From contig OZ244561.1 of assembly GCA_965217585.1 (NCBI GenBank), forward strand, positions 3,936,001-4,000,000: DNA of 64,000 bases, in the 5' to 3' direction. Each line of letters begins with the position of its first letter. Position 1 is the stretch's first letter. This document shows positions 1,615-5,697 of this stretch, piece after piece. Source of the stretch: Candidatus Latescibacterota bacterium. GTDB taxonomy: Bacteria > Latescibacterota > UBA2968 > UBA8231. The notes beneath the pieces were generated by a model. That model ran no database searches and was not told the DNA's origin. It saw nothing but the letters and a program-made list of their open reading frames with translations. A program made the position numbers and the translations under genes.

Positions 1615-4098
1615 CTAGATGTGCAGCCAATAGTTGAACTTCACCAAGAAGATATTGGTCCCCTCGTCCACAAAGCTGCGCCGCAGGTTGTACCCGGGGC
1701 GAAACGCGCCTAGGTCGGAGTCGTCGTGGCGGAACTGCGACCAGACGACGAAAAGGGTGCTGCCCGGCTTGTACTCCCAGCGCAGGACGGCATTGCCTTG
1801 CAGCGAGCGGTTGCGGAAATCAGGGCTTTCCTCCGGGCCGGGATGCACGACAAACGAGTAGGAGCGCGGCCGCGCCAGCTCCTTGAAGTTGGCGTACTGG
1901 CCCGCACTAATAAAAGGCTGGACATAGAGCTCCAAGCTCAAGTCGCGGCTGAAGAGAATGTTGACCCGCGTCGTCAGATCGAGGGTTTGGCTGTCTAGCT
2001 CCCCGTACACGAATTGATCGTCTTCGCCGTCGGCATTCACATCGAAGTTTTCGACCCATTGGGCATCGCTGAAACCCCAGCTATAGCGCGGCCGCAGACT
2101 GATCTCGAACCGCGAGGTAGGCCGGATGCGGATGCTGCCGGAGACCTCGCGGTGGGTGCTGCCGGCCGAGTTGCCCTCCCACTCGTACTCGACCCAGCCA
2201 CTGACCATGAAGCGGTCGTCGCTTTCCAGCTCAATCTCAAAGCCGTCGCTTGCCGGCCTCGCGATTAGGGGACCGCCGCGCGTGTCGAGGTCGTCGAAGG
2301 ACCGCCACATGTGGTAGTAGTCGATGTGGATCCACCAGTAGTTTTTGAGCTGGTGGTGGGTATTGAAGTCAAAGCCGTTTTGCAGGTTGGTGCGGTCGAC
2401 GTTCCAAGTGCCCCAGCGATTGAAGTTGTAGAAATTGCGGCGGAAGATGGCCCAGTCTTCTTCCTTGCGCAGCTGGATCCAGAGCCAAGGATTGTAGAAG
2501 TCGCTGCGCCATTGGAAGCCAAGGTCGTCGATCTCAAAATGCCGCGAATAGGCCTCCCACCAAAGCTCGCCGCGCAACCAGCCGCTGTTTTTGCTCAAGA
2601 CCGCCATATTGCCCAAACCGCCGCGGCGCTGGTCATCCACCGTGGCGCGGCTGCCGGCGAGCTGGCCCCAAAAGGTGTATCCGTTGTCGCGCCACTTGAG
2701 GGTCCAATCCACGCCGCCGGTATAGGCGTCTCGCGCTCGGTCGCGTTGCACAGCCGTCCCCAAGAGGCCGATGTGCGAGTTGCCGGTAAAGAGATCCTGC
2801 TTGACGCGACCGACGAGGAAGTGAGTGCGCGGCTCGACGAGAAAGTCGCGGCGCTCTTGGTACTCCTCATCGGACACCTCGCGCACCATGGTCGTTGCAC
2901 CGCCTGAAGGCGGCGAGAAAGTCGTTGCAATGCGCGCGTACTCCTTGGCGGTAAGCGCCGTCAGCAGGCCAAAGGTGGTTTTGGACGCGGTCTTGCCCGT
3001 CAGCTTGGCCGCGCCCAGAATGGTGGTGGACTCGCTCTCGTTGAGGGCCTCGTGGCCGTCGGGCAACGAGTGAAAGCCGGGCTGGCGGCCAATGCGCCGC
3101 GAGTAGAACAGGTCAATTGGGGTGTCGAAGGTCTCGCCGTCCTCCACGAAGAAGGGACGACGCTCTTCTTGGAACGTCTCAAAGACCGAGAGGTTGAGTT
3201 CGGCCGGGTCGGCCTCCACTTGGCCGAAATCTGGGTTGATCGTGGCGTTGAGCGAGATGTTCGACGACAGCCCGTAGCGCAAGTCCGCGCCGGCATTGCC
3301 GAATAATTCACGCGCATCCGCATAGGTGGAACGACCCACCGAATAGGGCAAAAGCTCCAGCGCGCGCGTAGATCTGACATCCGCTAAGCCCTCTAAGTGG
3401 GCAAAGCGCGAGACCGAGCCGCTTTCCTTGCGCGGGACCATGACCCAGAAGGCCTGTTCCTTCTTGCGGCTGATGTAGCGGGCGACATTGATGCCCCAGT
3501 CCTCGCCGCTGCTAAAGCGGAGGTTGTGGAACGGGATCGCAAACTCCACGCTCCATCCCTCTGCGCCAATGGCATGCGCGGATTCCCACACGCCGTTCCA
3601 AGTGTCGTTGTCCCAACCGTAGTCCTTGATTACAGCGTCGTAGATCGACCCGCCGGCATACACCGCAAAGGCGTAGCCCGTCTGGTGGTCGTGATGCGTG
3701 TCTAAGCTGACTTGGATCCAATCGGCTTCGGTCCACTGGTCGCGGCGCACCAAGCGCGAGACGATCTGCTCGGGTGCCGAATCGTAGGCCATGATCCCCA
3801 CGTAGAGCGCCTCGTCGTCGTACGCCAACTGCACGGTGGTCTTTTCGCTTGCGGGCTGCCCCTCCTCGGGCTCGCGCTGGACGAAGCCCGTAAAGACCGG
3901 GGCCTGCTGCCACACCGGGTCGTCGAGCACGCCGTCGATCTGCGGACGGATGCCTTCTAGACGCACGGCGTCGAGCGCGCGGCCGGGCGCTTGGTGGGCG
4001 TGCAGAACGCGGGGGCCGAGGACCGCACAGGCCACCGATGCCAAGCAATACAGCCAGTTGATCAGCCGAGAGCATACTTCTGTCTTGCGGTTTTGCAT
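1615..4098 (-). CDS. CBM9-like / DUF5916 domain outer-membrane-associated protein
   Basis: N-terminal IDGVLDDPVW...YDDEALYV (CBM9-like), NPDFGQVEADPAELNLSVFETFQEERRPFF motif, terminal FLVKFNYW. Start placed at MQNRK ahead of a signal peptide. Confidence 0.8.
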   Translation of the reverse strand: MQNRKTEVCSRLINWLYCLASVACAVLGPRVLHAHQAPGRALDAVRLEGIRPQIDGVLDDPVWQQAPVFTGFVQREPEEGQPASEKTTVQLAYDDEALYVGIMAYDSAPEQIVSRLVRRDQWTEADWIQVSLDTHHDHQTGYAFAVYAGGSIYDAVIKDYGWDNDTWNGVWESAHAIGAEGWSVEFAIPFHNLRFSSGEDWGINVARYISRKKEQAFWVMVPRKESGSVSRFAHLEGLADVRSTRALELLPYSVGRSTYADARELFGNAGADLRYGLSSNISLNATINPDFGQVEADPAELNLSVFETFQEERRPFFVEDGETFDTPIDLFYSRRIGRQPGFHSLPDGHEALNESESTTILGAAKLTGKTASKTTFGLLTALTAKEYARIATTFSPPSGGATTMVREVSDEEYQERRDFLVEPRTHFLVGRVKQDLFTGNSHIGLLGTAVQRDRARDAYTGGVDWTLKWRDNGYTFWGQLAGSRATVDDQRRGGLGNMAVLSKNSGWLRGELWWEAYSRHFEIDDLGFQWRSDFYNPWLWIQLRKEEDWAIFRRNFYNFNRWGTWNVDRTNLQNGFDFNTHHQLKNYWWIHIDYYHMWRSFDDLDTRGGPLIARPASDGFEIELESDDRFMVSGWVEYEWEGNSAGSTHREVSGSIRIRPTSRFEISLRPRYSWGFSDAQWVENFDVNADGEDDQFVYGELDSQTLDLTTRVNILFSRDLSLELYVQPFISAGQYANFKELARPRSYSFVVHPGPEESPDFRNRSLQGNAVLRWEYKPGSTLFVVWSQFRHDDSDLGAFRPGYNLRRSFVDEGTNIFLVKFNYWLHI

Positions 4099-4138
4099 GT
4101 TTTTTCTGTGTCCTAAGGTCGAAGGGGTTGATATCCCT

Positions 4139-4164
4139 GGGGCAGCGGTTGCCGCCGCTGCCCC
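4139..4164. terminator. GC-rich hairpin downstream of small peptide ORF
   Basis: GGGGCAGCGG-ttgccg-CCGCTGCCCC perfect 10-bp stem. No strong U-tract. Confidence 0.4.
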
Positions 4165-4202
4165 AAGCCGGTTTCGCAATGCCGCTGCGCGTCAAAGAGC
4201 CA

Positions 4203-4295
4203 TTAGCTGAGGAAGCGCAGGAGCGGTATCATCGCGAATACAAAGAGGCTGATGATTGCGTACATCAGTCCTTGGTTGATGATCTCGCGTCGCAT
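4203..4295 (-). CDS. 30-aa single-TM small protein (MRREIINQGLMYAIISLFVFAMIPLLRFLS)
   Basis: AAGGAG Shine-Dalgarno about 9 nt upstream of ATG. One hydrophobic helix. Confidence 0.55.
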   Translation of the reverse strand: MRREIINQGLMYAIISLFVFAMIPLLRFLS

Positions 4296-4385
4296 CGTGT
4301 GGTTGCTCCTTGCGATGAGGTCCTTGGGTGGCTTGGTGAATGTCGCGCAGACCCGCTGCCGTCCGCCCGGGGTGGGCGACTTCAC

Positions 4386-4432
4386 AAAAAAAGAGGCCGC
4401 AGCGCGTTGTCATTTTCGCGCCACGGCCTCTT
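4386..4432 (-). terminator. Rho-independent terminator (minus strand)
   Basis: AAGAGGCCG (4391-4399) and CGGCCTCTT (4424-4432) form a stem ending in a T7 run on the minus strand. Confidence 0.6.
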
Positions 4433-4626
4433 GCCACGTTAAGCTCTTGCAAAGAAGAGCTTCAGTCGGGGACAGAGCCCCGTCCCCTCGGCGCGAATTG
4501 GGTCTTTTCGAGTTGCACATCGGCAGCTAGACAGGCGCACCCACCATATAAATTTCCTCCGGCGGCTATGCGCGGCGTCCCGCGCATGTCGAAGCGATGT
4601 ACACCTATCATTTTCATCCTCCTGTG

Positions 4627-4657
4627 GTTTCAATCCACGCCCCCACACGGGGGCGAC
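4627..4657 (-). CRISPR. Solitary type I-C-like CRISPR repeat (no array, no cas genes in window)
   Basis: Minus strand GTCGCCCCCGTGTGGGGGCGTGGATTGAAAC: 5' GTCGC, palindromic CCCCC/GGGGG stem, 3' GTGGATTGAAAC. AT-rich leader-like region at 4660-4770. Confidence 0.75.
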
Positions 4658-4794
4658 GCAGCCGCGAGAGTTTAGAGTTTATTGTTGCCCTATAAATCTA
4701 GTTACGAGGGGGCGTAAAACAGTGTCAAGGGACGCGTAAAAAATTTTCAGAAAAAGTGCAGTGGGGTTAAATCAGGCGCTGGGAGATCTCGCAA

Positions 4795-5697
4795 TTAGGG
4801 GCCGATCCAATAGAGCAGAATCGACAGCCCGAGTGGACTCCACAAGGTCGAACCAATGAGAATGCCGCCGAGCAGATCGGGGCGCGCGTCAAAGCGCACG
4901 GTCAGGATGAGGGCGTTGATAGCCGTAGGCAGGCAGGAGCACAGCAGCAGCACGTCGCGCACCGCTCCCTGCGCGCCGATGAGCAGCGTCAGGCCGATGC
5001 CAATCGCCGGCCCCAACAAGACCTTAGCGCCAATGCCGCCGTACAGAGCGGCCGAGCTGCGGCCGCGGAGGGGGATGCACGAGACTTGGACCCCGAGCAG
5101 GATGATGGCGATGATCGGGCCGGCCCTACCGATCAGATCGGCCGCGTCGAGGACGGAGGCCGGGATCGGTACAGCGAGGGCATTGACGGCCAAAGCCAGG
5201 GCCGCGGTGTAAATCAGCGGTAGTCTGAAAATGCTCTTGAACGCTTGCAGCGGGCTTTGCCGCCCTCCAGCGGCGATGTAGGTGCCTAGCGACGCGGCCA
5301 TAACATTGCCGTACACAAAGAGCAGCATGACGATCGCTAGTGCCTCGTCGCCAAAGGCGAAGAGCACGACGGGGACGCCATACGAGGCGATGTTGACCGT
5401 CGGGAGGGAGAGGGTGACCGCGCTGCGGGTGGGTTTGTCCCAGCCGGCCAGATGAGCCACGAGCGCAATGACGGGCATACTGACCAGGTACATCCCAACC
5501 TGCCAAGCGAAGGCTTGGGCGGCCGCCACGCCGGTAACCGGGTGGCGCACCAGCGCCGAAAACATCAAAAAGGGCAGGCAGATGTATATGGCCACATCGG
5601 CCAAGGGGGCGGGGTCAATGGAGCGCCGCCGCCCCAACAGATAGCCGCAGCCGATGAGGACGAAGAGCGGGGCAATGACGTCGAGCAGAAAGGCCAT
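4795..5697 (-). CDS. AEC (auxin efflux carrier) family transporter
   Basis: About 10 TM helices, N.ASYGVPVVLFAFG and LPTAINA motifs. Confidence 0.85.
   Translation of the reverse strand: MAFLLDVIAPLFVLIGCGYLLGRRRSIDPAPLADVAIYICLPFLMFSALVRHPVTGVAAAQAFAWQVGMYLVSMPVIALVAHLAGWDKPTRSAVTLSLPTVNIASYGVPVVLFAFGDEALAIVMLLFVYGNVMAASLGTYIAAGGRQSPLQAFKSIFRLPLIYTAALALAVNALAVPIPASVLDAADLIGRAGPIIAIILLGVQVSCIPLRGRSSAALYGGIGAKVLLGPAIGIGLTLLIGAQGAVRDVLLLCSCLPTAINALILTVRFDARPDLLGGILIGSTLWSPLGLSILLYWIGP

Follow-up and report, generated by a model that had tools for sequence, protein, structure and literature searches.

The DNA analysed here, called the window, is a stretch of 64,000 nucleotides from Candidatus Latescibacterota bacterium (assembly GCA_965217585.1, contig OZ244561.1, positions 3,936,001 to 4,000,000). 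Positions 4386–4731 of its minus strand hold a unit with a solitary repeat of the kind found in type I-C CRISPR (clustered regularly interspaced short palindromic repeat) arrays. The unit is best explained as a small, separately transcribed gene, consisting of a promoter block, a 5′ untranslated region (UTR) of about 80 nt that includes the repeat, a Shine-Dalgarno (SD) sequence, an open reading frame (ORF) of 49 codons, and a terminator. A previous sequence-only reading of the stretch had listed a TTGACA box, an ambiguous −10 element, the repeat, three hairpins, and a terminator ending with seven T; all were found on the minus strand at the positions it gave. Its proposal of an independent transcription unit of about 300 nt agrees with the presence of a separate promoter block and terminator.

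The promoter block (CCCTTGACACTGTTTTACGCCCCCTCGTAACTA, 4699–4731) was recognized from its sequence and contains a perfect −35 element (TTGACA, 4728–4723). The −10 element is ambiguous, being either TAACTA (4704–4699) or GTAACT. The segment CTTGACACTGTTT of this block is present in a single copy in the genome. The block is the most conserved part of the unit, with a pairwise difference of 0.010 among seven repeat-bearing (R) alleles and 0.038 among seven alleles with another hairpin in place of the repeat (N), both described below. Neither the promoter nor the terminator was called by a simple consensus scan, the terminator loop of 10 nt being above the limit of the scan. Downstream, a 5′ flank of 17 nt (TAAACTCTCGCGGCTGC, 4658–4674), delineated by alignment of the orthologous loci, is found only in repeat-bearing alleles. 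When it was compared with the sequences adjoining the repeats of I-C arrays and array remnants of relatives, only chance 8–10-mers were found, and nothing informative. The repeat itself (GTCGCCCCCGTGTGGGGGCGTGGATTGAAAC, 31 nt, 4627–4657) forms a stem GCCCCC/GGGGGC (4654–4649 and 4644–4639) with a GTGT loop, a hairpin that is present in the predicted minimum-energy fold, and ends with an 11-nt 3′ handle (TGGATTGAAAC, 4637–4627).

The SD sequence AGGAGG (4618–4623) is positioned 6 nt upstream of the ATG at 4611, which opens the 49-codon ORF (MIGVHRFDM...FAPRGRGSVPD; 4462–4611, stop included). Upstream of it is an in-frame ATG (4617) that relatives do not preserve as a start. The segment following the repeat, previously described as spacer-like, is in fact the AGGAGG and ATG of this ORF, and it is equally conserved in 13 loci devoid of the repeat. 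Also overlooked was that two of the hairpins are inside the ORF. The first of these (ATGCGCGG-GACG-CCGCGCAT, 4568–4587) is found in repeat-less alleles as well and was kept by RNAalifold, with mostly one-sided GC-to-GU changes and one compensatory cell; the second is GGGGAC/GTCCCC. A hairpin of the 3′ UTR (AAGCTCTT/AAGAGCTT, 4441–4462) overlaps the last base of the stop codon and is followed by the intrinsic terminator (4386–4432), with a 16-bp stem, the 10-nt loop, and the run of seven T. The fold of the 3′ part of the unit has a z-score of −6.19, and 0 of 200 shuffled sequences were equally stable. The pairs of the terminator are invariant or changed on one side over 22 loci, with a pairwise difference of 0.033 among the seven R alleles. 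A search of Rfam with positions 3800–5300, at expect values (E) up to 10, returned no family accounting for the unit.

The repeat occurs once in the window when up to three mismatches are allowed, no match being obtained in 100 shuffled sequences. It is likewise single-copy in the whole genome, which consists of one contig of 7,323,734 bp, so that its solitary state, as claimed by the sequence-only reading, extends from the window to the chromosome. It has the features of the type I-C sequence class: a length of about 32 nt, a GC-rich stem-loop and an 11-nt 3′ handle ending with ATTGAAAC. It differs at two positions from the 32-nt consensus of the 46-repeat I-C array of one relative (G009), and is 94–97% identical to the array repeats of four relatives, in which the arrays adjoin Cas5d matches of 149–158 bits. 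The Rfam model CRISPR-DR9, a 37-nt model of a related class, gave 24.7 bits with the repeat (E 0.009), below its gathering score of 45, a result of little weight given the class of the model. An array in the sense of at least two repeats with spacers does not exist at this site. The search for type I-C elsewhere and the comparison of repeats, which had been suggested, gave no I-C system in this genome, and arrays with about two differences in the four relatives. Because of this similarity, the window copy is a genuine I-C repeat in a genome now without type I-C.

Contigs from four sequencing runs were compared with positions 4100–4900; such contigs are uninformative on the ends, strand or level of an RNA and may stem from carried-over DNA. 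In the best DNA run (X1), a contig of 133 nt spans 4596–4728 with unique sequence on either side of a single repeat, which indicates that the solitary state does not result from assembly collapse. The ORF is covered by contigs from three RNA libraries of two studies. One of them (X17, from a run labelled sponge metagenome) covers 4445–4682 and joins the repeat to the ORF, another (X18) stops at 4622, and a third (X19) is a repeat-less allele. That a longer array was collapsed to one repeat by the assembler can practically be dismissed, as the genome is one 7.32-Mb contig, the X1 and X17 contigs show the same arrangement, and eight other loci of the genus and one metagenome locus each have one repeat. 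Of the earlier suggestion of a collapsed array, the technical part is thus contradicted by the X1 contig, and the evolutionary part, a fragment of an I-C array, is the best reading of the repeat.

No effector of type I-C was found in the genome. Searches for I-C Cas5d (PF09704) and Csd2-type Cas7 (PF05107) gave no match each, and tblastn with nine ORFs of the I-C operon of G022 matched only Cas4, Cas1, and Cas2 of resident type III and I-G/III loci; Cas5d, Cas8c, Cas7, and Cas3 of type I-C were not detectable. The genome has two Cas1 genes. Its cas loci, neither of which is I-C, are at 1.96–1.98 Mb and 7.13–7.15 Mb, as compared with 3.94 Mb for the window, consistent with the earlier remark that no cas gene is near. 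The first (C1:1,960,000–1,976,600) is a type III locus with Cas6, Cas10, RAMP, Cas1, a CARF-sigma54-type regulator, and a fusion of a cold-shock domain with a RAMP. The second (C1:7,130,000–7,152,000) is a composite of type I-G (GSU0053/GSU0054/Cas3) and type III, in which Cas4 is fused to Cas1 and the array has about 90 repeats.

The repeats of the resident arrays partly resemble the window repeat in their handles. The type III repeat has 37 nt and ends with GGGGATTGAAAC, the last 8 nt being identical to those of the window copy, and the I-G-associated repeat has a similar stem-plus-handle layout, the stem being followed by CCTCATTGAAGC. The type III Cas6 or a Cas5/6-like protein of type I-G, the genes of both systems (Cas6, Cas10, RAMP; GSU0053/GSU0054/Cas3) being present, could accordingly cut the transcript through the matching ATTGAAAC handle, and the product would enter those effectors as a CRISPR RNA (crRNA)-like molecule. 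This cross-use is very unlikely. The likeness is restricted to 8–10 nt of the handle, with unrelated stems and upstream repeat parts, the would-be spacer has no target outside the locus, and N alleles yield the same downstream RNA without the repeat.

Complete type I-C systems are present in 4 of 31 genomes of the genus (G004, G008, G009, and G022), with Cas5d adjoining arrays of 46–120 repeats (46 in G009, 96 in G022, and 120 in G004). Relics were also encountered. A second solitary and degenerate I-C repeat (…CTCCTCGTTTCGGCGGGGGAGCGGATTGAAAC) lies outside the window, at C1:3060670 on the minus strand, and resembles the degenerate terminal repeat of the array of G008; it is probably the last trace of the genome's own lost I-C array. 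Two genomes, G041 (L041) and G043 (L040), have two-repeat stubs at the same site, with repeats 12–16 nt apart, and G042 (L042) has a lone repeat precisely where the 120-repeat array of G004 ends. Type I-C systems appear to be frequently gained and lost in this genus of symbionts, with recurring relics. The last 25 nt of I-C array leaders (…CACAATGTATTAGCTTGCAACA) were compared with the sequence preceding the solitary repeat of the window, and no resemblance was found.

The unit was found with 75–91% identity in 19 of the 24 genus genomes searched first and in none of 16 genomes outside the genus; further genus genomes gave 5 of 5, then 1 of 5. No match was obtained in G015, G016, G017, and G023, each searched twice, nor in G018, which is 58% complete and was searched once. 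The locus is at the same chromosomal place in 25 genomes, and is flanked in most of them by genes for a Mem_trans transporter, a GFO/IDH/MocA protein and a DUF5916 protein, which confirms the chromosomal, non-phage setting previously proposed. Alleles were counted on the 25 complete orthologous loci; that of G024, cut by a contig end, was left out. Nine of the 25 carry the R allele, a 48-nt cassette consisting of the 17-nt flank and the repeat. It is canonical in seven (G000, G011, G013, G022, G012, G003, and G006), has an insertion in G043, and is degenerate in G009, in which the handle is changed to GGATTGCAAT. In 13 loci, the N allele has instead a hairpin of about 20 nt (CGACGCTTTTAAGAGCGCC and variants). 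The three remaining loci (G019, G045, and G046) have a divergent allele, also without repeat. The cassette therefore occupies the place of a native hairpin of 19–21 nt of other species. A scan of metagenomes yielded a single additional locus, of R type with the 11-nt handle duplicated. Only one repeat is present in each of the eight other R loci of the genus and in the metagenome locus, and two repeats nowhere; likewise no ordinary array in relatives, which would have refuted the sequence-only reading by its own account, is found at this site in the 25 genus loci and the metagenome locus. The N hairpin was considered as a CRISPR repeat of another type or a dispersed element, and this was rejected, as it is single-copy in the 12 genomes matched; two matches with three mismatches in G017 are attributed to chance.

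The chromosomal position bears on the possibility that the unit is a decoy, in which a solitary repeat RNA would titrate I-C Cas proteins in the manner of phage RNA anti-CRISPRs (Racr). According to a study of viral solitary repeat units (PMC10651486), these are found downstream of a promoter and without cas association, as here, and a type I-C example adjoins a small acr gene. In the same study, 82.9% of prophage solitary repeat units match the cas subtype of the host. Here the host has no type I-C, the site is syntenic between the Mem_trans and DUF5916 genes with no prophage or plasmid, and 13 of 25 loci do without the repeat. A decoy of this kind is highly improbable.

A guide function was also evaluated. 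The 36-nt would-be spacer was compared with this genome, in which the best matches outside the locus were of 14 nt (E 0.5), none adjoining a TTC protospacer-adjacent motif (PAM). A pattern consisting of the PAM and 18 nt was searched in the four I-C genomes, and retrieved the loci themselves and one site in G004, a genome without the repeat at this locus. The partial-match search with the TTC motif proposed by the sequence-only reading thus gave no target in this genome or in the four I-C relatives. Its suggestion that the RNA is processed by Cas5d into a guide or decoy is not supported for this genome, which has neither I-C effector nor TTC-adjacent partial target.

The I-C loci of three relatives, G022 (L030, around 1700–1850), G004 (L031, around 1950–2100), and G009 (L032, minus orientation), share, some 150 nt upstream of cas5d, a conserved crRNA-like unit. 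It consists of an AT-rich promoter, a degenerate repeat, a conserved spacer-like sequence CACATGTATTACGTA... and a terminator, and is followed by the cas5d promoter. Between the −35 and −10 elements, this promoter contains TTC followed by 12–14 of 18 bases matching the spacer-like sequence. From these sequences, the unit looks like a CreR-type autorepressor. It is absent from the I-C locus of G008. It serves as a positive control, giving the appearance of a functional solitary repeat in these organisms. The cas5d promoter of G009 (L032, CCCTTGACACTGTTTAA) has 15 consecutive bases in common with the window promoter (4716–4731), a string that is single-copy in this genome; the match could be due to chance or be a trace of recombination.

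The ORF is intact in all 25 complete loci. Indels within it are of 3, 12, and 3 nt, as compared with 1–2 nt in the UTRs, and the GGAG and ATG are retained in R, N, and divergent alleles, although the leader of the divergent clade is another one. Conservation of the SD and start, an open frame and indels in threes are features of a small gene. The ORF was predicted as a gene in 31 protein clusters, all from close relatives and unnamed or annotated as hypothetical; a member of one homologous cluster is labelled by one source as a Gemmatimonadota metagenome-assembled genome. No relative of the 49-residue product was found in Pfam, NCBIfam, and the ESM Atlas. The coding signature is nevertheless weak. 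The ratio of nonsynonymous to synonymous rates (dN/dS) is about 0.64, the 27, 24, and 26 variable columns of 56 at the three codon positions are evenly distributed, avoidance of stop codons reached P = 0.08, and 12 of 25 loci have a second open frame.

These numbers would also be expected if the unit were chiefly a structured small RNA, possibly with a dual function, with an incidental or weakly translated ORF and the repeat as one of several 5′ stem-loops. Other observations pointing in this direction are that several amino-acid-changing substitutions preserve pairs as GC-to-GU, that AlphaFold2 gave a low-confidence model of the product without secondary structure (predicted local distance difference test 51.7, predicted template modelling score 0.13), and that the promoter and terminator are much more conserved than the ORF. 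An RNA of this kind is unlikely to be the main product, as the SD and ATG have been retained by the divergent clade too, despite its otherwise different leader, and all indels in the ORF are multiples of three, those outside being of 1–2 nt. The covariation term of RNAalifold is −0.55 kcal/mol, with 2 of 51 pairs compensatory and many one-sided GC-to-GU changes, and Rfam has no matching family. Complementarity to the mRNA of the neighbouring gene amounts to one conserved 8-mer, in 13 of 23 loci. Antisense control of this neighbour was rejected on the same ground, and because the energies of the full-length duplexes are within 1–2 standard deviations of those of shuffled sequences. The ORF is considered to be a small, fast-evolving gene that may in addition act at the RNA level.

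If the repeat were used by Cas proteins, its conservation and its association with type I-C systems should be informative. Among the seven canonical R alleles, the pairwise difference is 0.146 in the repeat and 0.090 in the ORF, as compared with 0.010 in the promoter and 0.033 in the terminator, so that special constraint on the repeat relative to the ORF is not evident. No association was found between the allele and the presence of type I-C, the four I-C genomes having N, N, R, and degenerate R alleles.

A Cas5d-responsive leader was examined in this light. In cells with type I-C, Cas5d would cut the mRNA within the repeat, 11 nt short of its end, and subunits of Cascade would load on the handle and the SD and start codon, so that expression of the small gene would be tied to type I-C; the leader would be latent in this genome because type I-C has been lost. 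The GC stem, of 5–7 bp, is kept in eight of the nine R-type loci, the handle is unchanged in five of the seven canonical R alleles and has one substitution in the other two, and G022 combines an R allele with a full I-C system of 96 repeats. The R/N polymorphism is moreover old and recombining. The lack of association with type I-C and the conservation of the repeat, no better than that of the ORF, count against such a leader. In addition, the most decayed copy, with the GGATTGCAAT handle, is that of G009, in which type I-C looks active, and six of the seven canonical R alleles are in genomes without a matching I-C Cas5d. The proposal is unlikely. An extension of it, in which the cassette would be an exapted Cas sensor, is quite unlikely: with I-C Cas5d or Cascade on the SD and start, production of the protein would depend on whether a mobile I-C system is present or has been lost, and selection would keep R and N as a balanced polymorphism while I-C islands are gained and lost in symbiont populations.

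The history of the cassette was traced on a tree of rpoB from 29 genomes, onto which the R and N states were mapped by Fitch parsimony for 22 taxa. For the 1.1 kb adjoining the locus downstream, a tree was poorly resolved and partly based on non-homologous sequence, and rpoB was used instead. Eight changes between R and N are required, as compared with 7.2 on average and 9 at most for shuffled states; 87% of the shuffles need eight changes or fewer. Supported sister genomes differ in state, as in G000 (R) and G001 (N), with a support of 0.997, and in G013 (R) and G002 (N), with a support of 1.0. Likewise, G021 (N) groups with G006 and G012 (both R) with a support of 0.997. The R allele is found on at least three ORF haplotypes. 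Since R and N are interspersed regardless of the species tree, the cassette has probably been moved by recombination. All R copies have a common 5′ flank, and the loops of the canonical copies (GTGT or the closely related CGTGT, and CGCGT in G013) are shorter than and distinct from the CGTGC or TCGCGT of the arrays. The common flank and the GTGT-type loop indicate a single origin, followed by spread by recombination across the near-invariant promoter and ORF start. The arrangement of the unit, its uniqueness and synteny, the distribution of the alleles, the lack of I-C effector genes and of a target, and the occurrence in RNA libraries are established by these data; from the whole of them we infer a single origin, spread by recombination, and lack of a Cas-linked function.

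It is judged moderately probable that the repeat is a relic of a type I-C system that was captured by the 5′ UTR of a small, conserved gene, where it is functionally equivalent to the hairpin that it replaced. The cassette would have arisen once from a DNA fragment of an I-C array, an evolutionary origin that is likely, and would then have passed between lineages by homologous recombination over the highly conserved flanks. This genome would subsequently have lost type I-C. As there is no cognate Cas partner, the repeat here guides nothing and decoys nothing. Any present role would be that of a generic stem-loop of a 5′ UTR, equal to the replaced hairpin.

Several points weigh against this explanation by relic and capture. 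The 11-nt handle differs less among R alleles than the ORF does (0.043 and 0.090), a comparison that involves only 11 columns and related sequences. The succession of a repeat, about 36 nt, and a hairpin is the layout of the type I-C crRNA-like RNAs that arise from a single repeat unit, as presented in a preprint (bioRxiv 10.1101/2024.12.27.630466), a resemblance that also speaks for the Cas5d-responsive leader. According to another preprint (bioRxiv 10.1101/2023.03.03.530964), intergenic regions away from CRISPR-cas loci are depleted in repeat-like sequences, so that a retained copy is unusual. The ATTGAAAC ending is shared by the repeat of the resident type III array, and the I-G repeat, which ends with ATTGAAGC, has a similar layout. 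As for the spread of the cassette, rpoB is a single gene, which may not reflect the species tree, and some nodes are weakly supported. Each of the two major clades of rpoB contains both R and N, which also occur on several haplotypes of the ORF, and balancing selection on a functional difference could explain their persistence as well as neutral recombination.

Relic and capture can be compared with known situations. Like array remnants, of which the genus has clear cases (G042, G041, G043, and C1:3060670), the window copy is a single repeat without cognate cas genes. Unlike them, it is not at a former array site, no relative having an array here, and it is embedded in the 5′ leader of a small conserved gene with which it is transcribed, being one of two cassettes that alternate and recombine between species. 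In the CRISPR-guarded toxin modules of the CreTA type, reported by Li et al. in Science in 2021, a repeat-bearing RNA encoded inside the cas operon is reported to repress the promoter of a toxin as a guide. A repeat-like element coupled to a small gene would resemble such a Cas-dependent control of a small toxic product. In contrast, the window repeat lies in cis on its mRNA, the small gene is also retained by genomes that have neither the repeat nor type I-C, and there is no evidence of toxicity.

The crRNA-like RNAs of type I-C (crlRNA), CreR, and CreA, as described in the two preprints (10.1101/2024.12.27.630466, 10.1101/2023.03.03.530964), have a promoter, one repeat unit, about 36 nt, and a hairpin, as does the window unit. 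The latter differs in being distant from the cas loci of a genome without I-C effector. Its spacer-like segment has no PAM-adjacent promoter target, and is the translation start of an ORF, present also without the repeat. Racr units such as RacrIC1 share with it a solitary repeat with a promoter, away from cas genes and adjoining a small ORF; as described (PMC10651486), they are encoded by phages or plasmids and usually match the cas subtype of the host. The window unit is chromosomal, syntenic across the genus, mismatched to the cas content of its host, and has its repeat upstream of the ORF on the same transcript.

Solitary repeats are currently viewed as phage decoys (Racr), regulators of cas loci (crlRNA, CreR, and CreA), or debris. 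The present case shows a fourth situation, in which a repeat captured by an ordinary small gene of the chromosome, in its leader, persists after the loss of the matching Cas proteins and segregates with a non-repeat hairpin between species. A literature search, which was not designed to exclude such a case, brought up no chromosomal gene reported to have a CRISPR repeat in its 5′ UTR. Since the spacer-like segment is here a ribosome-binding site and a start codon, the succession of promoter, repeat, spacer-like segment and hairpin is insufficient to identify a crRNA-like regulator. If the cassette is neutral, it cautions against calling regulatory crRNA-like RNAs from layout alone. If it is not, a CRISPR repeat would for the first time be seen to act in cis on a host mRNA, away from any cas locus or mobile element.

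On the terminator side of the unit, this genome has a specific deletion of about 228 nt with its junction at 4380/4381. The missing piece is present directly after the terminator in all relatives compared. It contains (for example in L005, L011, and L012) a further TTGACA promoter, the perfect palindrome CTGAAC-N4-GTTCAG, and the first part of the gene of a tail-anchored protein. Both forms occur in run X1, in which the junction is crossed by one DNA contig and other contigs are undeleted. What is left of the gene (4203–4385, minus strand) is its C-terminal part only, including MRREIINQGLMYAIISLFVFAMIPLLRFLS from an ATG at 4295. The protein is arginine-rich, with about 105–110 residues; of 26 loci, 23 have an intact gene, the truncated ones being those of G000, G008, and G014, and its last 180 nt or so are 94–100% identical across the genus. 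The idea that the palindrome is a LexA box was not supported, as neither lexA nor either recA of this genome has a GAAC-N4-GTTC upstream, and the motif shows no enrichment (73 sites, as compared with about 112 expected).

On the promoter side, the upstream neighbour is replaced in some relatives, as in G004 (L021, around 1381–1500) and G002 (L019), in which the promoter is preceded by short tandem repeats of the CAGTGGTCAG type. The left edge of the unit is thus a synteny breakpoint.

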